From Candidatus Levyibacteriota bacterium (GTDB lineage: Bacteria; Patescibacteriota; Microgenomatia; Levybacterales; UBA12049), in contig JAUSEW010000002.1 in assembly GCA_030651475.1 (NCBI GenBank), forward strand, positions 19,927 through 83,926: a DNA stretch of 64,000 nucleotides. The letters run 5' to 3'. Below the pieces are notes generated by a model. That model was not told the DNA's origin, made no database searches, and saw only the letters and a list, made by a program, of their open reading frames with translations. The translations under genes were made by a program, and so were the position numbers. This document shows positions 19,000 to 32,079 of the stretch, piece after piece (position 1 is the first letter of the stretch; the number at the start of each line of letters is the position of its first letter).

Positions 19000-19155
19000 A
19001 GGCTTGCTTTATATCATATTGCTTTCAGTTTGTCAAAAAAATGAGAGCTTGGATTAGTTTTTGGCAACTTCCTTTGCTCTTTCGTTCAAATGCCCCAGAT
19101 AAAAAATCGTAGACATTCGTAGGTATTATTACATATTGTTGATATTGACAAGTCA

Positions 19156-19179
19156 CTTTAATAATATATATTATTAAAG
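19156..19179. promoter_or_regulatory. 24-bp perfect AT palindrome overlapping the -10 region and abutting the start codon of the TrpR-like gene
   Basis: CTTTAATAATATATATTATTAAAG, with TTGACA at 19145-19150. ATG at 19181, so the transcript is leaderless. Confidence 0.6.
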
Positions 19180-19180
19180 T

Positions 19181-19624
19181 ATGACACAGATTTCTAAATA
19201 CCCTGTTCATAAAAAAGTTGAAGAGAGAATGTTTGAGGTTCTTCGAGAAACAATCTCTCATCTAAATAACGCAGAAGACATAGAAGATTTTCTAACCGAT
19301 TTCCTTTCTCCTGTTGAAAAGATTATGTTGGCAAAACGGCTTTCTATTGCCATTCTCTTGCATAAGGGATATAAATATGGAACTATAGCGGAAATATTAA
19401 GGGTTACGCCTCCAACAATTGCGACAGTCAGCTTATTGCTTAGATATTCCGGTAAGGGTTACAGAAAGGCTGTAGGGAAAATAGCGGCAAACGAAAAAAT
19501 GAATCTATTTTGGGAAAAAGTGGAGGATATGCTATCTAAAATACCTAATTCAAAAGGGAGCGATTGGGTATATCAGAAGAGAGAATACGAGAGAAAGAAA
19601 AGCGTCCGCAAAAAAGCTTTTTAG
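19181..19624 (+). CDS. TrpR-like DNA-binding protein (YerC/YecD family)
   Basis: LSPVEKIMLAKRLSIAILL and GYKYGTIAEILRVTPPTIATVS helix-turn-helix. Confidence 0.7.
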   Translation: MTQISKYPVHKKVEERMFEVLRETISHLNNAEDIEDFLTDFLSPVEKIMLAKRLSIAILLHKGYKYGTIAEILRVTPPTIATVSLLLRYSGKGYRKAVGKIAANEKMNLFWEKVEDMLSKIPNSKGSDWVYQKREYERKKSVRKKAF

Positions 19625-24205: not shown

Positions 24206-24234
24206 TTGACAATCGACTATTAATCGACTATAAT
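24206..24234 (+). promoter_or_regulatory. perfect consensus sigma-70 promoter upstream of fic
   Basis: TTGACA, 17-nt spacer, then TATAAT. The spacer contains the direct repeat TCGACTAT x2. Confidence 0.6.
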
Positions 24235-24314: not shown

Positions 24315-25343
24315 ATGTTCTATCCAAAATATACTATTACCGATCGGCTTCTTGCTAATATAAAAAGAATTAATATCTTAGTAAGCGAATTGAACAATAG
24401 ACGGTTTCCTCATGTTGTTTTATTAGAATTAGAGAGAGTAGCTAGGGAAGTATCTGCTTATGCTTCAACTAGCATTGAGGGTAATCCATTGCCCCTAACA
24501 GAAGTCAAAAAAATTCTTAAATCAACGCCCGTACACATACGAGACAGCGAGAGAGAAATATTAAATTATAATCAAGCACTGCAAGATTTAAATAGAAAAC
24601 TTAAGGAAGAGAGTGCGCGTTTATCCCTTGACCTTATTTTACAAATTCAAAAACAAGTTATGAGGGATTTATTGTCGGAATCTGAAGCAGGAAGACTTCG
24701 AGAAAAACCGGTAGTTGTTAACGATCCGCGAACGGGACAGGTTGTATATTTGCCGCCTGAAATTAAAGACGTAAAACGCCTTATGGAAGATTTGATTTCG
24801 TTTGTCAATTCGAATAGGGAAGCTATTGATTCCCTCATTCTTGCCGGTATTTTCCACAAACAAATGGTTATTATTCATCCCTTTATGGATGGTAACGGAA
24901 GAACAACTCGTCTTGCAACTAAGGTGTTACTTGCTGAAATGGGACTTAACACATTTAATCTCTTTAGCTTTGAAAATTACTATAATAAAAATGTTACAAA
25001 GTATTTCCAAACAGTAGGGGAATTTGGCAATTATTATGATTTAACCGAAGAAATTGACTTTACTTCTTTTCTTGAATATTTTACTGAAGGAATTATCGAT
25101 GAGCTCTTACGAGTAAAAAAAATACTGCCAAAATTTGCGGCAACTCCGCAAACGCAATTACAAACTTATCACTTGAAATTACTTAAGCATATTCGAGAAG
25201 AAGGTTTTATTAACGATAGGAATTATGCTCAATTGACAGATCGAGCTAAAGCAACAAGGACACAAGACTTTAAAAAGCTGCTAAAATTGGGTTTAATTGA
25301 AAAAAAAGGGAAAGGTAAAGCCACATATTATATTTTGAAATAA
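24315..25343 (+). CDS. fic: Fic family protein (class II, AMPylase-type motif)
   Basis: HPFMDGNGRTTR Fic motif, N-terminal inhibitory-helix motif STSIEG ([ST]xxxE[GN]) and C-terminal wHTH-like tail. Confidence 0.85.
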   Translation: MFYPKYTITDRLLANIKRINILVSELNNRRFPHVVLLELERVAREVSAYASTSIEGNPLPLTEVKKILKSTPVHIRDSEREILNYNQALQDLNRKLKEESARLSLDLILQIQKQVMRDLLSESEAGRLREKPVVVNDPRTGQVVYLPPEIKDVKRLMEDLISFVNSNREAIDSLILAGIFHKQMVIIHPFMDGNGRTTRLATKVLLAEMGLNTFNLFSFENYYNKNVTKYFQTVGEFGNYYDLTEEIDFTSFLEYFTEGIIDELLRVKKILPKFAATPQTQLQTYHLKLLKHIREEGFINDRNYAQLTDRAKATRTQDFKKLLKLGLIEKKGKGKATYYILK

Positions 25344-25365
25344 AGATAAAACTCCCAATAAAAAT

Positions 25366-25394
25366 TTGACAAACGCCTTATAGCGTGATATAAG
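25366..25394 (+). promoter_or_regulatory. leaderless promoter, conserved motif copy A
   Basis: TTGACAAACGCCTTATAGCGTGATATAAG. About 26 nt are shared with 27285-27314. ATG follows 8 nt after the -10. Confidence 0.55.
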
Positions 25395-25402
25395 CTAAAC
25401 AT

Positions 25403-25603
25403 ATGCCAGCGGAACGTTTGAAGAAAGGACAACCGACAGATAGAGGAACTAAAAACGCAGTAAACGAATTCAGTTCCCATGTCGCTCATGTTGTCGTTGC
25501 CGACCCTGATGGTGGTTTCAGTGTCGTCGTCGACCGAGGTGTTGCCAATAACCTTGATCCTTTCAGCCGCACTGTTCGTCCGGTAGTGGCAAAAAATAAA
25601 TAG
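25403..25603 (+). CDS. small GC-rich ORF (66 codons) of unknown function; possibly non-coding
   Basis: GC content higher than surroundings and shares a promoter motif with the DGR target. No homology recognised. Confidence 0.3.
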   Translation: MPAERLKKGQPTDRGTKNAVNEFSSHVAHVVVADPDGGFSVVVDRGVANNLDPFSRTVRPVVAKNK

Positions 25604-25676
25604 GAAATTGGGTTTTAGCCTCCGCATATCTTGCGGTATTGCAATTTTAACCACACTGGCTTAAGATTTACTTAAG

Positions 25677-26456
25677 GTGAGATTGGAAAATAAAGTTGCG
25701 ATTGTTACAGGCGGGGGAAGCGGAATCGGGCAGGCGATAGCTATTCTGTTCGCCAAAGAAGGCGCCAAAGTCGTTGCTGCCGGCAGAAGGATTGAGGCTT
25801 TGCAAAGTACAGTAGCGGAAATTGTCCGCCAAAGGCGGATCAGCCTAGGGCTGAAAAAATCAGGCGGTGAAGCTCTAGCAGTAACAGCAGACGTTTCTTC
25901 TTTTTCTTCAATACAAAATCTTATCCAAAAAACTCTGGAAAAATTTGGCAGAATTGATATTCTGGTCAACAATGCTGGCATTTATTTAGCCGGCGACGCA
26001 GTATCGACAACCGAAGAAGATTGGGATAAAGTTCTGGCAATTGACGCCAAAGGAACATTTTTGTGTTCCAAAGCAGCTCTTCCATCGATGATAAAACAGG
26101 GAAAAGGGAAAATCGTCAATACAGCTTCTATAGCCGGATGGATAGGTTTCGAAGAAAGCATAGCTTACTGTGCGGCAAAAGGCGCGGTTGTTAATATGAC
26201 TAGGGAGATGGCTTTGGATTTCGGACCAAAAAATATCAATGTCAATGCAATTGCGCCCGGTGTCGTAGAAACGGATATGACCCAAAGTTTTTTGCAGGAT
26301 GAAAACGCCAAAAAATCCTTTTTGGATAAAATCCCAATAGGAAGAATTGGAAAACCTTTGGATATTGCTTATGCGGCCTTGTATTTGGCATCGGATGAAT
26401 CGGATTTTGTTACTGGAGAAACGCTGATAGTTGACGGCGGATGGACAGCCAGATAA
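25677..26456 (+). CDS. SDR family oxidoreductase (FabG-like)
   Basis: TGGGSGIG NAD(P) motif, NNAG and catalytic YxxxK (YCAAK). Confidence 0.85.
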   Translation: MRLENKVAIVTGGGSGIGQAIAILFAKEGAKVVAAGRRIEALQSTVAEIVRQRRISLGLKKSGGEALAVTADVSSFSSIQNLIQKTLEKFGRIDILVNNAGIYLAGDAVSTTEEDWDKVLAIDAKGTFLCSKAALPSMIKQGKGKIVNTASIAGWIGFEESIAYCAAKGAVVNMTREMALDFGPKNINVNAIAPGVVETDMTQSFLQDENAKKSFLDKIPIGRIGKPLDIAYAALYLASDESDFVTGETLIVDGGWTAR

Positions 26457-26566
26457 TGGAGAGAAAAATTTCGGTAACACATCTAAATGTAAGACAGAGC
26501 ATTTTCTTTTTGCTTCAGAAAAACACGTCTTAGCGGAAAAAGTTATAGAAGAAGAGAAAAGATAGA

Positions 26567-27223
26567 TTATAAAGCTGCGACCGAAACTGTAAGAATTTCG
26601 CCGTCATAATCAAACTTAAATTCTATGGGTACATTTTTATTATTGGTTATATAGAGATTTTGTACCTGATTTGAATAGCTTTTGCCAGGATCATCATAAA
26701 TAGCTACCCCAAACTCTTTTGGAATTTCCGGAATAGGCGTAAAATCATGGTTGGTAGGCGCTTTTGCCTCAAGACCTGCATCTTTCGCAGCCCAATAAAT
26801 AATTGAAGCTAAATGACAAATTCCATCACCTACAAGATAACCGTCGGATTTGAAGCCCTCCTGTGAATTAAAATGAGCATTTGTAGTTTTTACAATCTTC
26901 TCTTGGTATTCCGGCAACACATCATCGTGGAAAGAAAATACCTCGTTTGGTTTTAAAGTCCATTTATAATGGAAAGGTTTTCCTATCTCTTGCCAGTTTA
27001 TGCTCGCGTTTTTGCCAACTTTATCCGCCATATAGGCAATATTTAGCAAAATGTTGTCTTTGAAAATATCATTTACGAATTTATTGGAATAACGTTTTTC
27101 CAAAGATATGGCACGAGAGGATAGCACCTGTTCAGAGGGTTTATTTTGTTGGGGAAGGTTTTGTACGATAGGCAGGTTTATGCCAAAAAACAGCACAGCT
27201 CCTAAAAGTGTTGATGTAAACAT
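26567..27223 (-). CDS. VanW-like protein with N-terminal membrane anchor
   Basis: GDGICHLASIIYWAA resembles the VanW GGGVCQ motif. N-terminal hydrophobic segment. Confidence 0.5.
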   Translation of the reverse strand: MFTSTLLGAVLFFGINLPIVQNLPQQNKPSEQVLSSRAISLEKRYSNKFVNDIFKDNILLNIAYMADKVGKNASINWQEIGKPFHYKWTLKPNEVFSFHDDVLPEYQEKIVKTTNAHFNSQEGFKSDGYLVGDGICHLASIIYWAAKDAGLEAKAPTNHDFTPIPEIPKEFGVAIYDDPGKSYSNQVQNLYITNNKNVPIEFKFDYDGEILTVSVAAL

Positions 27224-27284
27224 AAGTGTTGCAGTATATCACACTATAAGCCCAAAGTCAAGTATAGACTATTCGATTTAGAGC

Positions 27285-27314
27285 TTGACAAGACGCCTTA
27301 TAGTGTGATAATAT
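27285..27314 (+). promoter_or_regulatory. leaderless promoter, conserved motif copy B (DGR target gene)
   Basis: TTGACAAGACGCCTTATAGTGTGATAATAT. ATG at 27324. Confidence 0.55.
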
Positions 27315-27323
27315 CTTAAAATT

Positions 27324-28109
27324 ATGACAATGCGACACATTGAAAGCAAAGAAGGATTAGGAGAATTCGTTGGGGATCCCAATGGCGATAAAGCCAAATT
27401 AGCAATAACTCTCATAGAGGGCGCAAGAAAATGGAGGGAGACATTTGGAGATATTTCTTTGCCATCTGTTACAGCTTCAGTTGAAGTAAAACCATTTTCT
27501 CCAGAAGCAGTTACTAATTATTGGCGAACAAAATTACAAGCAGATGGTAAAAGAATAGGACTTTCTATTTCCGTGCCAGATTGTAGTTGGACAGAAGCAG
27601 AAATAAGAAAGCCAATGGTAGATGTTAAAGGAAACGAAGTTCCTTCAATGTTAGTTTATGTTCCGCAAGAGCTTATGGGAAAAGAAGGATTAGTAAGATT
27701 AGGACAGATGTATCCAAAGATGAATAACTGGTCTGTTCAAGAAGACACTAGCGTGCAAAATAGTCCTGATGCAAACAAAAAAGGCGGATGGGTTAAAGTA
27801 GAAGCAATTGTTGATGCCCCAAATCTTAATACTACTCAGGAAGATCTTGAACAGCATGCCAAAGATAAAAAATATTTCGCACAAACATTAAATACTTTTA
27901 TTCTTGCTTCTCAAGCAAATAAAGATTTAACAGGACGTTACTTAGATGAAGGATCGACATGGTCTCGTTTGCTTGGTTCTCGTCGCGCGAGCGGTGTGGT
28001 TCATGCCGACTTCGGTTCGGGTGGGTACTTGTTTGTCGGTTGGGGTCTGGGTCCGCAGGGTCACGGTTCGGGCATAGGCGGGCGTTTTGAAGAAGTGAAG
28101 AAAGCTTAA
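27324..28109 (+). CDS. DGR variable (target) protein, C-terminal CLec/FGE-like variable region
   Basis: C-terminus carries the VR (..GSTWSRLLGSRRASGVVHADFGSGGYLFVGWGLGPQGHGSGIGGRF..). Confidence 0.8.
   Translation: MTMRHIESKEGLGEFVGDPNGDKAKLAITLIEGARKWRETFGDISLPSVTASVEVKPFSPEAVTNYWRTKLQADGKRIGLSISVPDCSWTEAEIRKPMVDVKGNEVPSMLVYVPQELMGKEGLVRLGQMYPKMNNWSVQEDTSVQNSPDANKKGGWVKVEAIVDAPNLNTTQEDLEQHAKDKKYFAQTLNTFILASQANKDLTGRYLDEGSTWSRLLGSRRASGVVHADFGSGGYLFVGWGLGPQGHGSGIGGRFEEVKKA
27971..28097 (+). repeat. DGR variable repeat (VR)
   Basis: 127 bp aligned to the TR without gaps. 26 of 28 mismatches are at TR adenines. Confidence 0.85.
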
Positions 28110-28430
28110 ACCTTTGCCTCTTTGTCCTTTTAGCTCCTTTGACTTTCGTTTTTTTATAGTCCTCCCAAACTATTTTATGCTACAATACTCCTGAGAGTAG
28201 GTTAATACATTCTTAAGCTAAGACTTTAGAATTACCGAAATCCTTGATTTTCAAAATTTTGTTCGATTTCTGTTGTTTATGGATAACAGAAGAATACAAA
28301 AGAAAAACAAGACACTTCTTGCCTAATGCTTGCGAAGATGTCCTGAGCTTGTCGAAGGACTACTTCCAAATAAAATACAACAGTAAGAGTAATCAAACTG
28401 TGGTGGTAATTGATGGCATAAGGCAAAAAA

Positions 28431-28557
28431 GCTTGGTTCTCGTAACGAGAGCAATGTGGTTAATGCCAACTTCAATTCGGATGGTAACTTGAATGTCAAT
28501 TGGAATCTGAATCCGCAGAATCACAATTCGAACATAGGCGGGCGTTTTGGAGAAGTA
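28431..28557 (+). repeat. DGR template repeat (TR)
   Basis: AAY-codon-rich (Asn) copy: ..NVVNANFNSDGNLNVNWNLNPQNHNSNIGGRF.. Confidence 0.85.
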
Positions 28558-28564
28558 GCTTGTT

Positions 28565-28861
28565 TTAAATTTGAGTTAATGATCTTTTCCATCCTCCAAG
28601 CATCCTGCCAACTTCTTGGAGGAATTGTTCTAACTGTAGATATTTATTATTGTCAAGAGATTGAACATCTTTAGCCAGTCTGAGCAATATCTTTAAAAGA
28701 TCTAATGAGATGATAGCTTTTTCAAGATAAAGAAGCTTTTTGTCTTTCTGACTTGTTCCTGCCATAAGGATTAGTTCGAAAATTGTAAGCGTTAGACTAT
28801 CCAGCTTTTGTCCTAAAGTGTAGCGGTCTTTTTTGGGGAAAAGCTTCAGGTATCCATACAA
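28565..28861 (-). CDS. avd: accessory variability determinant (Avd), four-helix-bundle family
   Basis: C-terminal EVGRMLGGWKRS matches Bordetella phage Avd EVGRILGSWIAR, and FPKKDRYTLGQKL is the helix-2 signature. TTG start. The frame stays open upstream through the (AC)n tract. Confidence 0.75.
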   Translation of the reverse strand: MYGYLKLFPKKDRYTLGQKLDSLTLTIFELILMAGTSQKDKKLLYLEKAIISLDLLKILLRLAKDVQSLDNNKYLQLEQFLQEVGRMLGGWKRSLTQI

Positions 28862-28911
28862 TAATTTGTAGAAATCATAGAATCTTTGAATAAGAGGTAT
28901 GTCAAAGTCAG

Positions 28912-28932
28912 GTGTGTGTGTGTGTGTGTGTG
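28912..28932. repeat. (GT)10 dinucleotide microsatellite between divergent avd and RT
   Basis: GTGTGTGTGTGTGTGTGTGTG. Confidence 0.9.
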
Positions 28933-28947
28933 AATATCTTTATCTGT

Positions 28948-30012
28948 ATGCATATTGATACATTCGACGGTGCCGAGCACCGCTCAGTATCAACCCTGAG
29001 CGAAGTCGAACGGGTTGATTATTCCAAGCTTATCTCAATAGAAAATTTATTTCAAGCATGGAAAGAGTTTAGAAAAGGAAAAGCTAAGCGTTTTGATGTT
29101 GCGGAATTTGAAAGGAATTTAGAAGATAATTTATTTGAATTACATTTAAAATTGAAAAATAAAAGTTATAAACATGGAGGTTACGAATCATTTTATGTTC
29201 ACGACCCAAAACAGCGGCATATTCATAAAGCAAGTGTTATAGATAGGGTAGTTCATCATCTGCTTTACACCTTTTTGTATAAGTTGTTTGACAGAGTATT
29301 TATTTATGATTCCTATTCCTGCAGACTTAATAAAGGAACCCATAAAGGAGTAAAGAGATTAGCGGAACTTACAAGAAAAGTTTCTAAAAACTATACAAGA
29401 CCTTGTTTTGCTTTAAAATTAGATATTAAAAAGTTTTTTGCCAGCGTTGACCATGAAGTTTTACTTACCTTACTTAAGAAAAAGGTTAAAGATAAAGATA
29501 TTATTTGGTTGTTAGTACAGATAATCAATAGTTTTTACTCGGATAAAGGAGAAGGGAAAGGAATGCCTCTTGGCAATTTAACCAGTCAGGTTTTTGCCAA
29601 TATTTACCTCAATGAACTTGACCAGTTTACAAAACATAAGTTAAAAGTAAAATATTATCTTCGTTATGCAGATGATTTTCTGTTTTTATCAAAGAATAAA
29701 GAGTTATTGTGTAAATATATTGACGTATTAAGACAATTCCTGAGCAACGGACTTAAACTTGAACTTCATCCTAATAAGATTATCTTTCGTAAATTAGAAT
29801 GGGGAATTGATTTCTTAGGCTACATAGTTTTACCTCATTATATTTTGCCAAGGACAAAAACTAGAAAAAGGATTTTTAAAAAATTAAAGGAAAATGTTGG
29901 TTCAGAAAACTTTAATCAATCCTTGCAATCCTATTTAGGATATTTAGGGCATGCCAGCAGTTTTAAAATAGCCCAATCTCTACTTTACTTTTACCAAAAA
30001 TATAGCTTATGA
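28948..30012 (+). CDS. DGR reverse transcriptase
   Basis: N-terminus ENLFQAWKEFRKGK resembles Brt. GNLTSQVFANIYLNELD carries the DGR SQ motif. RYADDFLFL is the YxDD motif. Start could instead be GTG 28912. Confidence 0.85.
   Translation: MHIDTFDGAEHRSVSTLSEVERVDYSKLISIENLFQAWKEFRKGKAKRFDVAEFERNLEDNLFELHLKLKNKSYKHGGYESFYVHDPKQRHIHKASVIDRVVHHLLYTFLYKLFDRVFIYDSYSCRLNKGTHKGVKRLAELTRKVSKNYTRPCFALKLDIKKFFASVDHEVLLTLLKKKVKDKDIIWLLVQIINSFYSDKGEGKGMPLGNLTSQVFANIYLNELDQFTKHKLKVKYYLRYADDFLFLSKNKELLCKYIDVLRQFLSNGLKLELHPNKIIFRKLEWGIDFLGYIVLPHYILPRTKTRKRIFKKLKENVGSENFNQSLQSYLGYLGHASSFKIAQSLLYFYQKYSL
28990..29018. repeat. palindromic element (family 1, inverted orientation) within the RT 5' region
   Basis: TCAACCCTGAGCGAAGTCGAACGGGTTGA. 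Confidence 0.65.
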
Positions 30013-30019
30013 TGGATAT

Positions 30020-30700
30020 ATGAAGAGAGTTTCGATTTTCCTTTCAATAGTTTTCCTTCTTGTTTTGGGAGTTTTCGTCTACAAGCACAATACTGATAAC
30101 ACATGCGGGAATTCAATTTCCTGCGCCAAAAATCTTACGGGTAAATACGAAAATACGAATTCGGGGATATTTTTGGGCAGGAAAGTAAGTATTCCCAGCG
30201 AAGTCGCGGATAAGATCCTTGCAGGGGGAGTAAGGTCGGTTTTGGGCGATACAACTGTTCAGAAAAGAATTGAAGTTAATCTTAACACCCAGCATCTTTA
30301 CGCATTTGAGGGTAATGAAGTCGTTATGGATTTTCCCATATCATCCGGCAAATGGTATCCTACCCCAACAGGCACATTTCATATTTGGTCGAAATTTCGC
30401 TTCGTGCGCATGGAGGGCGGAAATCCGGCAGCTAATACGTATTATAATTTGCCCAACGTACCTTTTGTGATGTTTTATTACAATGACGACATCGTACAGT
30501 CCAGAGGCTTTAGTCTGCACGGAACCTATTGGCATAATAATTTCGGTCATCCGATGAGCCACGGGTGCGTAAATATGAGAACAGAAGATGCTCAAAGAGT
30601 TTATTATTGGTCTAATCCGCCTGTTTCGGAGAATTCCACTTTCGCCAAAAACAACGAAGGAACAGAAATTATTGTTTACGGACAAGCTCCGGAGGAATAA
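30020..30700 (+). CDS. L,D-transpeptidase (YkuD domain), signal-anchored
   Basis: HGT...SHGCVNM catalytic motif and N-terminal TM. Confidence 0.8.
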   Translation: MKRVSIFLSIVFLLVLGVFVYKHNTDNTCGNSISCAKNLTGKYENTNSGIFLGRKVSIPSEVADKILAGGVRSVLGDTTVQKRIEVNLNTQHLYAFEGNEVVMDFPISSGKWYPTPTGTFHIWSKFRFVRMEGGNPAANTYYNLPNVPFVMFYYNDDIVQSRGFSLHGTYWHNNFGHPMSHGCVNMRTEDAQRVYYWSNPPVSENSTFAKNNEGTEIIVYGQAPEE

Positions 30701-31316: not shown

Positions 31317-31420
31317 TAACTCGCATTGGGTTTTCCTATTGAGATAAAAAGTTCATAATTCTTTTAAGTGTGTTTTTTTGGCTATTGACAAAGTTATAGC
31401 TTTGTTATAACATGGTTATA

Positions 31421-31441
31421 ACCCTTCGATAAACTCAGGGT
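31421..31441. repeat. palindromic element (family 1) between promoter and antitoxin start
   Basis: ACCCTTCGATAAACTCAGGGT, preceded by TTGACA-17-TAACAT. Confidence 0.65.
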
Positions 31442-31447
31442 AAATAT

Positions 31448-31690
31448 ATGGAACAAACAGTAATGCAAGTTGGCAATTCTTTAGCAGTCACTTTACCCAA
31501 GCAATTTGTTGACGCTAAAAAAATAAAAGCAGGACAAAAAATGCTTGTGGATGCAGACAATGATCTCTCTGTGGTTCAAATAAGAACAAAGAATTCTAAA
31601 GCCTCCAAGATTACTCCCGAATTTAAGAACTGGCTTGACGCATTCAATACCCGCTACAAGACAGCGCTTACTGAGCTTGCAAAAAAGTGA
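31448..31690 (+). CDS. AbrB/MazE-family antitoxin
   Basis: VGNSLAVTLPK swapped-hairpin motif. Overlaps doc by 4 nt. Confidence 0.7.
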   Translation: MEQTVMQVGNSLAVTLPKQFVDAKKIKAGQKMLVDADNDLSVVQIRTKNSKASKITPEFKNWLDAFNTRYKTALTELAKK

Positions 31691-32079
31691 GACAGACTAA
31701 GCACCTTATCCTCGACGAAGTAATTGCGATACACGATAGCATGATCGAACAGTATGGAGGAAGTTTCGGAATTCGCGATATTGGACTACTTCAGTCAGCG
31801 ATTAGCAGGCCGCAGGCATCATTTGGGGGCGTTGATCTTTATCCAACTATATTTGATAAGGCTGCCGCTCTTTTTCATTCATTGATGTTCAACCATGCTT
31901 TCATGGATGGAAACAAGAGGACAACCATGACAACAACTGCCAGATTCCTTGCAATAAATGGTTACTTGGTTGTAGTAGAACAAAGAGAATTTGTAGATTT
32001 TCCTCTTCGAGTGGAGAATAAACACCTCTCTCTTGGGGAAATCGTCGCTTGGCTGAAGAAACATACAAAGAAGATGTAA
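31687..32079 (+). CDS. doc: Doc toxin (Fic-fold kinase)
   Basis: HAFMDGNKRT Doc motif, 130 aa. Confidence 0.8.
   Translation: MRQTKHLILDEVIAIHDSMIEQYGGSFGIRDIGLLQSAISRPQASFGGVDLYPTIFDKAAALFHSLMFNHAFMDGNKRTTMTTTARFLAINGYLVVVEQREFVDFPLRVENKHLSLGEIVAWLKKHTKKM

Follow-up and report, generated by a model that had tools for sequence, protein, structure and literature searches.

A spacer box common to the promoters of a DGR variable-protein gene, a putative target-gene stump and a vanW-family gene in a Candidatus Levybacteria genome

The question raised by this locus is why a reading frame of 66 codons and the variable-protein gene of a DGR should be preceded by almost the same promoter. To our knowledge, almost nothing is known about gene control in uncultivated candidate-phyla-radiation bacteria or about the transcription of DGR variable-protein genes. 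In the window, by which we mean the whole 64,000-nucleotide stretch of DNA analyzed here, promoter A (25366-25394, plus strand) consists of a -35 hexamer TTGACA (25366-25371), a 17-nt spacer and a -10 hexamer TATAAG (25389-25394) that ends 8 nt before the ATG at 25403 of the 66-codon ORF, and its spacer contains the heptamer CTTATAG (25377-25383), hereafter the box, followed by CGTG (25384-25387). Promoter B (27285-27314, plus strand) has the -35 hexamer TTGACA (27285-27290), an 18-nt spacer with the box at 27297-27303 followed by TGTG (27304-27307), and a -10 hexamer TAATAT (27309-27314) that ends 9 nt before the ATG at 27324 of the DGR target; it can alternatively be parsed with a 16-nt spacer and GATAAT (27307-27312). 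The initial annotation had reported these two as near-identical promoters, and they do agree at 25 of 26 positions when one gap is allowed, and also have in common a variable 5-nt stretch, ACGCC. Both copies are real, but a third was missed: promoter C, on the minus strand (27261-27233), has a -35 of TTGACT (27261-27256), a 17-nt spacer with the box at 27250-27244 followed by TGTG, and a -10 of TATACT (27238-27233) that ends 9 nt before the ATG at 27223 of a vanW-family gene (26567-27223, minus strand; Pfam VanW, E = 1.6e-11). Promoters C and B form a perfect 14-nt inverted repeat, and the 18-mer ACGCCTTATAGYGTGATA occurs three times in the window when up to three mismatches are allowed, compared with 0.03 occurrences expected per shuffled window; neither an HMM built from the motif nor a relaxed scan with the family consensus found a fourth copy in the 64 kb.

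Each of the three has the near-TTGACA -35, the 16-18-bp spacing and the TAnnnT-type -10 of sigma-70/sigma-A promoters, together with a TRTG motif one base 5' of the -10 (TGTG-A in B and C; CGTG-A in A, which matches at three of four positions), and we predict them to be sigma-A (sigma-70-type) promoters of one class with a TRTG extended -10. Extended -10 promoters with a TRTG "-16 region" were reportedly described in Gram-positive bacteria by Voskuil and Chambliss in 1998. Such promoters are like A, B and C in the -35 TTGACA, the 17-18-bp spacer and the T(G/A)TG one base 5' of TAnnnT, whereas the promoters here have an additional invariant YYYATAG 5' of the TRTG, and this at few promoters only. 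The class-defining feature is this 7-nt box, CTTATAG in the window and YYYATAG in the family consensus, directly 5' of the TRTG, and we found nothing resembling it in that position described in the literature. The earlier suggestion of more conservation in the spacer than a promoter requires therefore holds for CTTATAG, which is unusual, but not for the 3' half of the conserved stretch, YGTGA, which is an ordinary TRTG extended -10.

In the case of the start codons, the -10 elements of A, B and C end 8, 9 and 9 nt upstream of the ATG with no GGAG-type motif in between, so that transcripts from the predicted start sites are expected to be leaderless or to carry a leader of at most 3 nt. The initial annotation had singled this out for A and B, and the geometry fits, but it is the norm of the organism: an SD-like motif is seen at few of the 61 window genes, a TGnTATAAT-type -10 with its end 6-10 nt 5' of the ATG at most of them, and leaderless expression appears to be the mode for most genes of this Candidatus Levybacteria genome, so it is no distinguishing trait of the genes behind A, B and C. 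The leaderless mRNAs of Actinobacteria and Deinococcus (TSS maps of M. tuberculosis, PMC3898074; survey, PMC3160421) are alike in having a TAnnnT -10 that ends 6-9 nt upstream of the AUG and no SD, but the present genome is one of Patescibacteria known from sequence alone, with leaderlessness apparently its organism-wide default.

Promoter B is predicted to drive the variable-protein gene of an intact DGR. The target gene (27324-28109, plus strand, 261 aa) contains a VR at 27971-28096, the TR lies at 28431-28556 on the same strand, and 25 of the 27 mismatches between VR and TR fall at TR adenines; avd (28565-28953, minus strand; annotated as an ORF of 28565-28861) is bAvd-like by its Pfam match, and the reverse transcriptase gene (28948-30012, plus strand) matches Pfam RVT_1, giving the element at 27324-30012 the RT, the Avd and the adenine-specific TR/VR substitutions of a DGR. 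The RT is 49-76% identical to those of loci L001-L108, and the target has 45 homologues, all named ones being from Levybacteria; its AlphaFold model (pLDDT 85) has its best PDB matches in Mtd, TaqVP and FGE, all of the C-type-lectin fold, though these matches are weak (E = 0.03). The DGR (about 27263-29975) sits between vanW and ykuD, an L,D-transpeptidase gene (30020-30700, plus strand; Pfam YkuD). The latter is the ancestral divergent neighbor of vanW, the evidence being that the two genes are adjacent and divergent in L131-L136, together with homology blocks with L015 and L026. Of vanW itself there are more than 2,500 homologues, and those that are named all come from Microgenomates. The DGR of Bordetella phage BPP-1 is organized as mtd-avd-TR-brt, and DGRs are said to be abundant in CPR genomes (Paul et al., 2017). 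The window DGR is like these in its RT, bAvd, adenine-specific TR/VR pair and C-type-lectin-like variable protein with a C-terminal VR, and differs in that avd is on the opposite strand and contains a dinucleotide repeat, that a promoter of a conserved class is dedicated to the target, and that a putative truncated second target lies 1.7 kb away.

That second target is the 66-codon ORF itself (25403-25603, plus strand; hypothetical protein Q7R31_00305). Its segment 25446-25614, which includes 11 nt beyond the stop codon, is homologous to the 3' end of the target at locus L029 (74% identity over 172 nt, E = 3e-24), and within it a VR remnant (25473-25525) matches the L029 TR at 83% over 53 nt, with seven of the nine mismatches at TR adenines. 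In a three-way alignment, the homology reaches beyond the TR-matching part on both sides and up to the same stop codon, with the C-terminal ~50 aa aligning with the end of the L029 target and the common ending VVAK(N/K)K-stop, and the tail of the ORF is depleted in A (fraction 0.20 compared with 0.44 in the head). Given this homology of the 3' end to a known target gene and its VR, with differences mostly at template adenines, we take the ORF to be a truncated second DGR target that has kept the family promoter, and promoters A and B would be alike because the ORF is a stump left by internal deletion from a second variable-protein gene. The lost gene was of the type found beside the closest related RT (L029), and the stump retains the family promoter, the start codon, the adenine-mutagenized VR end and the original stop. 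As it keeps only ~50 C-terminal residues of a ligand-binding (C-type-lectin-like) domain that comprises ~200 residues in the resident target model, we class it as a remnant rather than a functional member. At the 5' junction of the presumed deletion the similarity falls short of significance (E = 2.5). Orphan or degenerate DGR targets are comparable in having an A-depleted, VR-like 3' end, the stop-codon region and no matching TR, but the 66-codon ORF is without the ~200 N-terminal residues and yet has its promoter and frame intact. The L029-type TR matches the window at the 66-codon ORF only; a cognate TR was not found in the 64-kb window, where the resident TR (28431-28556) gives no significant match, and we rejected the possibility that the ORF is a remote target belonging to the resident DGR, because its alignment to the resident TR/VR is no better than to shuffles.

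The initial annotation had offered a duplicated regulatory module as one explanation of the likeness, and this is what paralogous target-gene promoters would amount to; its link between the small ORF and the DGR is likewise borne out by the motif, but the link is one of homology and not merely of a common operator. The description of the ORF as GC-rich applies mildly (45-52% compared with an average of 39%), and the N-terminal part of the neighboring SDR gene is richer. For annotation, it is relevant that small "orphan" ORFs beside DGRs can be what is left of former targets.

The search for further copies of the motif that had been recommended turned up promoter C in the window and, when 185,579 species genomes were scanned for the exact pattern, 28 loci, about 20 of which we counted as Patescibacteria-like; because the scan required the exact pattern, the invariance of the box among these loci is by construction. 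Among them are bona fide targets with A-type VR/TR mismatches (19/19 in L001, 25/25 in L018 and 17/18 in L021), target homologues with A-depleted tails (L007, L017, L024 and L026b), ORFs without a VR signature (L009, L012, L013 and L023), and, in L002, a promoter that precedes a tRNA-Arg pair. A class of tRNA or stable-RNA promoters was considered and rejected, as only L002 fits and the window tRNA-Leu and five other tRNA promoters are without the box. An association with phages was also rejected: the 22 matching stretches on viral contigs are redundant copies of three unrelated sequences and do not qualify as promoters, since the match is followed by neither a -10 hexamer nor a start codon close by.

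Two small samples (8 + 5) were retrieved independently of the motif. The box is present at five of five target promoters from RT-seeded metagenome loci with an RT at least 61% identical to the window RT and with the target upstream region present (L029, L031, L036, L038 and L042; leaderless subclade), and at eight of eight further vanW lineages of Microgenomates, orthologues at 56-70% amino acid identity in whose retrieved flanks no DGR genes were called and which differ among themselves in their -10 hexamers and neighboring genes. In these eight more distant lineages, the vanW orthologue promoters retain YYYATAG-TNTGN-TAnnnT, with TATG or TTTG at the TRTG position. The box is thus ancestral at vanW promoters of Microgenomates without an adjacent DGR, which makes it a mark of a promoter class rather than an element private to DGRs. 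Outside the class, 66 further leaderless promoters with an extended -10 all lack an in-register ATAG (Fisher p = 4e-15), and under a relaxed definition of the box 20 of 352 candidate sites match, 18 of them class members and two off-class.

The explanation that we favor, to which we give a probability of roughly 70%, is that A, B and C belong to one box class, that A is the promoter of a target stump, and that the box is functional. Promoters A and B would be alike by descent, as the common 5' module of the DGR target genes of this clade, and the box would be more than a by-product of that descent, given its ancestry at vanW, its presence at all motif-independently retrieved targets of the leaderless subclade and its absence from other leaderless promoters. 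It could then serve as a spacer recognition site for a host-encoded trans-acting factor of Microgenomates, which could be a repressor that occludes RNAP or a class-specific activator or sigma; we infer binding of such a host factor at a little under even odds, with a spacer element intrinsic to RNAP given less. If a factor does recognize the box, vanW, a cell-wall gene, and the DGR variable proteins would be under common regulation. The common operator proposed earlier fits in that conservation in orthologous promoters extends past the RNAP elements to the box, which only a subset of genes has, as would be the case for an operator, but the box has no dyad symmetry and is at most a putative operator in the strict sense. 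Neither dyad nor direct-repeat symmetry was found in the box in B, C or the vanW orthologues, and we rejected a palindromic operator, CTTATA-N6-TATAAG, which is seen in copy A only, where it coincides with the -10, and whose conserved center, GTGTGA, is asymmetric. In an informal comparison with known binding-site consensus sequences, the CRP site TGTGA-N6-TCACA, the NrdR box, the WalR/PhoP direct repeats, the DnaA box, Fur and cre gave half-site fits at most. Spacer operators of the MerR type and repressor sites that overlap the spacer are similar in being conserved sequence between -35 and -10 limited to a gene subset, though here dyad symmetry is lacking, the -35 and -10 stand at the optimal 17-18 bp instead of 19-20 bp, and the regulator is putative. 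A TrpR-like protein is a circumstantial candidate for binding the box, with one gene in the window (19181-19624) and another ~2 kb from vanW in L135. The Fic-wHTH gene (24315-25343) is absent from the relative CAYPUE, where the promoters persist.

Possible, though we would not bet on it, is that YYYATAG and TRTG together form an optimized spacer that is read directly by the RNAP holoenzyme of Microgenomates, through DNA shape or through contacts with sigma region 3 or the beta' zipper, and that simply makes strong promoters with no dedicated regulator. The asymmetry of the box, which abuts the TRTG and keeps a fixed distance of 5-6 nt to the -10 and a variable one to the -35, is what would be expected of such an element, as is its use by the tRNA-Arg operon, and the published division of spacers into AT, GC, AT and G-rich (TRTG) zones, such spacers being able to change promoter strength up to 600-fold (PMC12641261, where the TRTG element is also described), has its counterpart in AACGCC-TTATA-GTGTG. 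Against this, the ATAG is better conserved than the -10 hexamer across the vanW promoters, the box was not found at the housekeeping genes or the tRNA-Leu of the window, whose promoters in this same genome have T-rich spacers, and strength alone is not expected to hold the box invariant in one gene family over 56-70% protein identity.

We consider it improbable that the box is functionless and the spacer identity mere ancestry, the promoters being recent duplicates carried along by DGR cassettes and the remnants of these. The ACGCC of A and B, the attachment of promoter A to a target remnant, and the decayed DGRs that are common in the relatives L015 and L026 would all agree with such hitch-hiking, but the target coding sequences behind the box have diverged past recognition by BLAST (for example, L001 compared with the window target) while the box is exact, and at vanW promoters without an adjacent DGR the box is retained amid intergenic bases that vary.

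A still smaller probability goes to an exchange of gene cassettes by recombination or integration at the conserved promoter, which would account for a differing ORF behind promoter A in three close relatives and for breaks of homology at the promoters. Promoter A is the sole conserved block of its interval in the close relatives L013 and L015 (25345-25393, 82-86% identity), with homology present again from 25610; the ORFs behind it, of 66, 159 and 168 aa, are unrelated; homology with CAYPUE stops at 27332, just inside the target gene; and targets have shuffled N-terminal modules. However, these sites adjoin no gene for a recombinase or integrase, and the vanW gene behind promoter C is stable, and homologous recombination between conserved promoters plus promoter selection accounts for the same pattern. 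The 159- and 168-aa ORFs were also considered as target homologues and gave no significant matches, and L015a shows intermediate A-depletion only.

It is about as unlikely that the 66-codon ORF or the GC-richer region is a functional small protein or ncRNA co-regulated with the DGR. Its frame is intact, its ATG stands behind a strong promoter and a hairpin lies 3' of it, but a search of 5.8 billion proteins returned only the ORF itself, Pfam and Rfam gave no match to it, it has ~50 of the roughly 200 residues of a lectin-like domain, and the syntenic slot holds unrelated ORFs in relatives; as for an ncRNA in 25300-25720, Rfam at the gathering threshold and at E <= 10 returned only noise. Least credible is a generic promoter consensus of the organism, the outcome that the initial annotation had named as fatal to its proposal, for although TTGACA, TRTG and TAnnnT are generic and the leaderless geometry is genome-wide, the box stands at only three of the window's promoters and is missing from the 66 others and from all but two of the off-class sites counted above.

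The box is a short, computationally scorable cis-element at DGR targets and vanW across Microgenomates, and could be used for regulon prediction, for finding orphan or decayed DGR targets such as the 66-codon ORF, and for pull-down of the presumed binding factor. A more speculative extension, which we would put forward only tentatively, is that a small YYYATAG regulon across Microgenomates couples the DGR lectin-like proteins to vanW and, with a (GT)n tract in avd, makes for two-layer control of the DGR, in which regulated transcription of the variable protein would be combined with stochastic on/off switching of the mutagenesis machinery. The tract may be a phase switch for the DGR and, if confirmed at the read level, the avd dinucleotide repeat would let a simple genetic switch turn targeted hypermutation on and off. 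The microsatellite, (GT)10 at 28912-28931, lies in the 5' coding region of avd on the minus strand, 16 nt upstream of the RT ATG at 28948. The Pfam bAvd match to the annotated avd begins at profile position 15, and the conserved Avd N-terminus extends upstream across the (AC)n tract as far as an ATG on the minus strand (28953-28951) that, by frame analysis, is out of frame in this genome. In different relatives, the (GT)n tract places avd in or out of frame.

Three promoters in the window share one architecture. Promoter A, which precedes the 66-codon ORF (25403-25603, Q7R31_00305), consists of TTGACA, 17 nt, TATAAG and 8 nt before the ATG at 25403, and promoter B, which precedes the target gene of the intact DGR (27324-28109, Q7R31_00320), of TTGACA, 18 nt, TAATAT and 9 nt before the ATG at 27324. 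Both strings were reported in the initial annotation and were recovered exactly where it had placed them, but a third copy had been overlooked: promoter C, on the minus strand, reads TTGACT (27261-27256), 17 nt, TATACT and 9 nt before the ATG at 27223 of vanW (26567-27223), is divergent from B, and forms with it a perfect 14-nt inverted repeat. With up to three mismatches allowed, the 18-mer core occurs three times in the window against 0.03 expected per shuffled window, and neither a motif HMM nor a relaxed consensus scan found a fourth promoter copy in the 64 kb. The two ORFs and vanW are NCBI proteins on one shared 158,244-nt contig of a Candidatus Levybacteria (Microgenomates, Patescibacteria/CPR) MAG. 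The leaderless transcripts originally proposed are plausible for A, B, and C from their geometry, but a GGAG-type Shine-Dalgarno motif precedes few of the 61 window genes, and in most of them the ATG follows the end of a TGnTATAAT-like -10 hexamer by 6-10 nt. This suggests that the Levybacterium makes leaderless mRNAs by default, so that the geometry does not set the three promoters apart. A perfect 12/12 consensus promoter (TTGACA-17-TATAAT, 24206-24234) lies ~80 nt 5' of the start of the Fic gene (24315-25343) and, unlike the promoters of most genes of the window, would yield a leadered transcript.

The conserved spacer, which had been thought to exceed what a promoter needs, is only partly unusual. 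Its 3' part, YGTGA, is the TRTG extended -10 of Gram-positive promoters (PMC12641261), but the 7-nt box CTTATAG (family form YYYATAG) directly 5' of TRTG is distinctive. The spacers of other leaderless promoters, in the window as in related genomes, are T-rich (e.g., ATTTTTCTGATATAAT), and ATAG in the box register occurs in 0/66 other extended -10 leaderless promoters. A relaxed definition (YYYATAR, 4-6 nt, TAnnnT) is satisfied by 20 of 352 candidate sites, of which 18 are vanW, DGR-related, or were themselves retrieved via the motif. The box is also absent at the housekeeping genes checked (G6PD, PPDK, CysRS, HisRS, DnaX, and others) and at tRNA-Leu, and thus it is not a generic promoter consensus, the case that would have undone the original claim. 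We found no paper containing the motif string or describing a DGR target promoter in CPR.

The vanW gene is common throughout Microgenomates, and in eight further lineages (protein identity 56-70%; no DGR gene was called in the flanking sequence retrieved) its promoter reads TTGAC(A/T)-N5-C(T/C)(T/C)ATAG-T(A/G/T)TG-N-TAnnnT. The ATAG is invariant despite -10 hexamers that differ among lineages (TATACT, TAAAAT, TACAAT, TAGAAT, TATAAT), partly degenerate -35 hexamers, and neighbors that vary between a divergent ykuD and an upstream PBP gene. Fisher's test of the 66 controls against the 13 promoters chosen independently of the motif gives p = 4e-15. By these comparisons the box is ancestral at vanW. 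The ancestral arrangement has ykuD and vanW back to back with 75-260 nt between them (cf. loci L131-L136 from other genomes), and the window DGR (~27263-29975) lies between vanW and ykuD (30020-30700). Its VR (27971-28096) lies within the target gene and is followed by the TR (28431-28556), bAvd on the minus strand, and the RT, which ends at 30012. In a close relative (L015:3117-3135) there is no DGR at this site, and another (L026, 2108-3190) has a decayed one, comprising a target-like gene (247 aa) that has a box promoter and an A-depleted tail, together with the final 26 RT codons.

Scanning one genome per species for the exact pattern TTGAC-N6-7-CTTATAGYGTGATA gave 28 loci, compared with ~17 expected by chance at uniform base composition; ~20 of the 28 were counted as Patescibacteria-like MAGs, most with an ATG 11-15 nt after the motif. 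The genes behind these promoters include true targets with VR/TR pairs, in which adenine-type mismatches number 19/19 (L001), 25/25 (L018), and 17/18 (L021), and target homologues with A-depleted tails (L007, L017, L024, L026b). Because the scan forces the pattern by design, an additional sample was chosen by RT homology (at least 61% identity to the window RT, with the upstream region of the target present; n = 5), and in all five a leaderless TTGACA promoter carries the box in its family-consensus form: exact in L029, with a 1-nt insertion in L031, and as TTTATAG in L038, CCCATAG in L042, and CCCATAA in L036. Where the RT is more distant (58% identity or less, ~27 loci), most loci have leaders with a GGAG-type Shine-Dalgarno motif and none has the box, so the box follows both the element and the lineage of its host. 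Several box-bearing MAGs (L007, L009, L013, L017, L023, and L026 from CAZRWL01, CAYPUE01, CAZDTO01, and CAZKYX01, and L002 from CAYSAM01) are titled uncultured Gammaproteobacteria or Pseudomonadales but look like relatives of Levybacteria with wrong taxonomic labels: CAYPUE01 is syntenic with the window at 80-90% nucleotide identity, and the others have box promoters and in some cases DGR target homologues.

Because the box persists where all surroundings have diverged, we take it to be kept by selection. The reading we find most likely, at a probability of roughly 45%, is that the box is recognized within the spacer by a host factor; vanW and the DGR variable proteins would then form one small regulon. 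The main rival, which we consider somewhat less likely, is that the box is an intrinsic RNAP spacer element: it is asymmetric, it abuts TRTG in a fixed register, and it matches the AT/GC/AT/G-rich spacer layout reported to alter promoter strength up to 600-fold (PMC12641261). A near-identical box promoter (TTGACAAACGCCTTATAGTGTGATAATAT) also drives a pair of tRNA-Arg genes (L002:2600-2840, minus strand, on a 4-kb contig labelled Pseudomonadales), the sole stable-RNA case. We rate three other readings as less likely: pure hitch-hiking of promoter copies, recombination at a conserved promoter, and a function for the 66-codon ORF region as a small gene or RNA. If a host factor does bind the box, a TrpR-family protein is a circumstantial candidate; a YerC-like gene of this family lies at 19145-19624 behind a strong leaderless promoter, and a homologue (L135:74-520) lies ~2 kb from vanW on a Gottesmanbacteria contig. 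In the window, an AbrB/MazE-like and Doc toxin-antitoxin pair (31448-32079) has a promoter (31385-31447) in which the palindrome GTTATAAC occurs twice (31404-31411 and 31415-31422), probably the operator of the antitoxin and without relation to the box.

Searches of Pfam and Rfam gave no match for the 66-codon ORF, a homologue search retrieved just the ORF itself, and the resident TR and VR do not match it. The DGR with the RT closest to that of the window (L029, 76% identity) has a TR that matches window 25473-25525 at 83% identity, with 7/9 mismatches at TR adenines, and the 3' end of its target gene matches window 25446-25614 at 74% over 172 nt (E 3e-24). In a three-way alignment the similarity includes sequence 5' of the VR that the TR does not contain, and it passes the common stop codon to reach 11 nt of 3' flank; at the protein level, RGTKNAVNEFSSHVAHVVVADPDGGF...RTVRPVVAKNK of the ORF aligns with GRTKNPVNESGSLVAGVGGAYPDDGL...RIWVVRLVVAKKK of the L029 target. 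The tail of the ORF is A-depleted (A fraction 0.20 vs. 0.44 in the head), intermediate between intact targets (0.08-0.14) and ordinary genes (0.28-0.38). The resident target is predicted to form a confident domain of ~200 residues (pLDDT 85), whose closest PDB structures, Mtd, TaqVP, and FGE, all have the C-type-lectin fold but match it weakly, and the ORF stump retains just ~50 residues of such a domain. We conclude that the ORF is a second DGR target, presumably internally deleted, with promoter, start codon, VR end, and stop retained. The proposed link between the ORF and the DGR is thus real, but the ORF is a relic rather than an independent gene. Promoter A resembles B by descent, both being 5' modules of DGR target genes, and the two also have the variable stretch ACGCC in common. 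In two relatives with flanks 80-90% identical to the window (CAYPUE010000018, comprising L013 and L026, and JBBTZX contig 84, L015), the promoter (25345-25393) is the sole part in common from the TerC-like gene to the SDR gene (25677-26456); the ORFs behind it, of 66, 159, and 168 aa, are mutually unrelated, and the Fic gene is missing from the CAYPUE relative. Behind this orthologous promoter there is thus a variable slot (window 25345-25610 vs. L013:7466-8046 and L015:852-1527).

Between the RT ATG at 28948 and the start annotated for avd there is a (GT)10 tract (28912-28931), 16 nt upstream of that ATG; on the minus strand the tract falls within the true avd 5' coding region (context 28565-28953). 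The Avd N-terminus has a conserved start peptide, M(H/P/N)T(D/N)KDI, then (HT)n, then Avd helix 1 (..DIPIFAKTYEFYK..); the window reads MHTDKDI-(HT)n-...DIPLIQRFYDFYK, and the Pfam bAvd match begins at profile position 15, consistent with the extended start. Such a tract, of 6 to 20 GT/TG or 8 to 11 AG/GA units, occurs in 11/74 RT loci, with 21 such repeats in total across the 1.08 Mb of sequence examined, and the loci concerned (besides the window, L001, L018, L021, L029, L030, L031, L033, L034, L037, L038, and L079) are essentially the same subclade as the box-bearing loci. We found no paper connecting DGRs with simple-sequence repeats. Of the 11 loci, three (L031, L037, L079) have the upstream ATG in the Avd reading frame, close to the one-third expected of a slipped-strand switch, and in eight, the window included, the ATG is out of frame. 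The repeat may act as such an on/off switch for the DGR.

DGR targets have a modular N-terminal stretch of 40-100 residues (alignment A4). Protein P0126 joins the N-terminus of L024/L001-type targets (MSMQHLETEFRKQGK...; cf. L024:3452) to a body of the window-target family, and the L001, L031, and L038 targets have ~47 N-terminal residues in common with otherwise different bodies. In two loci (L029:3395-3425, L001:212-243) a gene ending in ...YKGSTNI lies upstream of the target, its stop codon overlapping the -35 of the target promoter; this ending is homologous to the end of a 325-aa unknown gene (L144:2960-3000) before P0131, which suggests a conserved upstream partner of these targets. P0131 itself (3001-3687 in L144-L153) is a 228-aa target homologue with 61% identity and a VR-like end (...GGRFEEVKKA); it is identical on at least 29 contigs, lies between infB and rpsO-pnp without a DGR or a box promoter, and is a fixed target copy in which diversification has ended.
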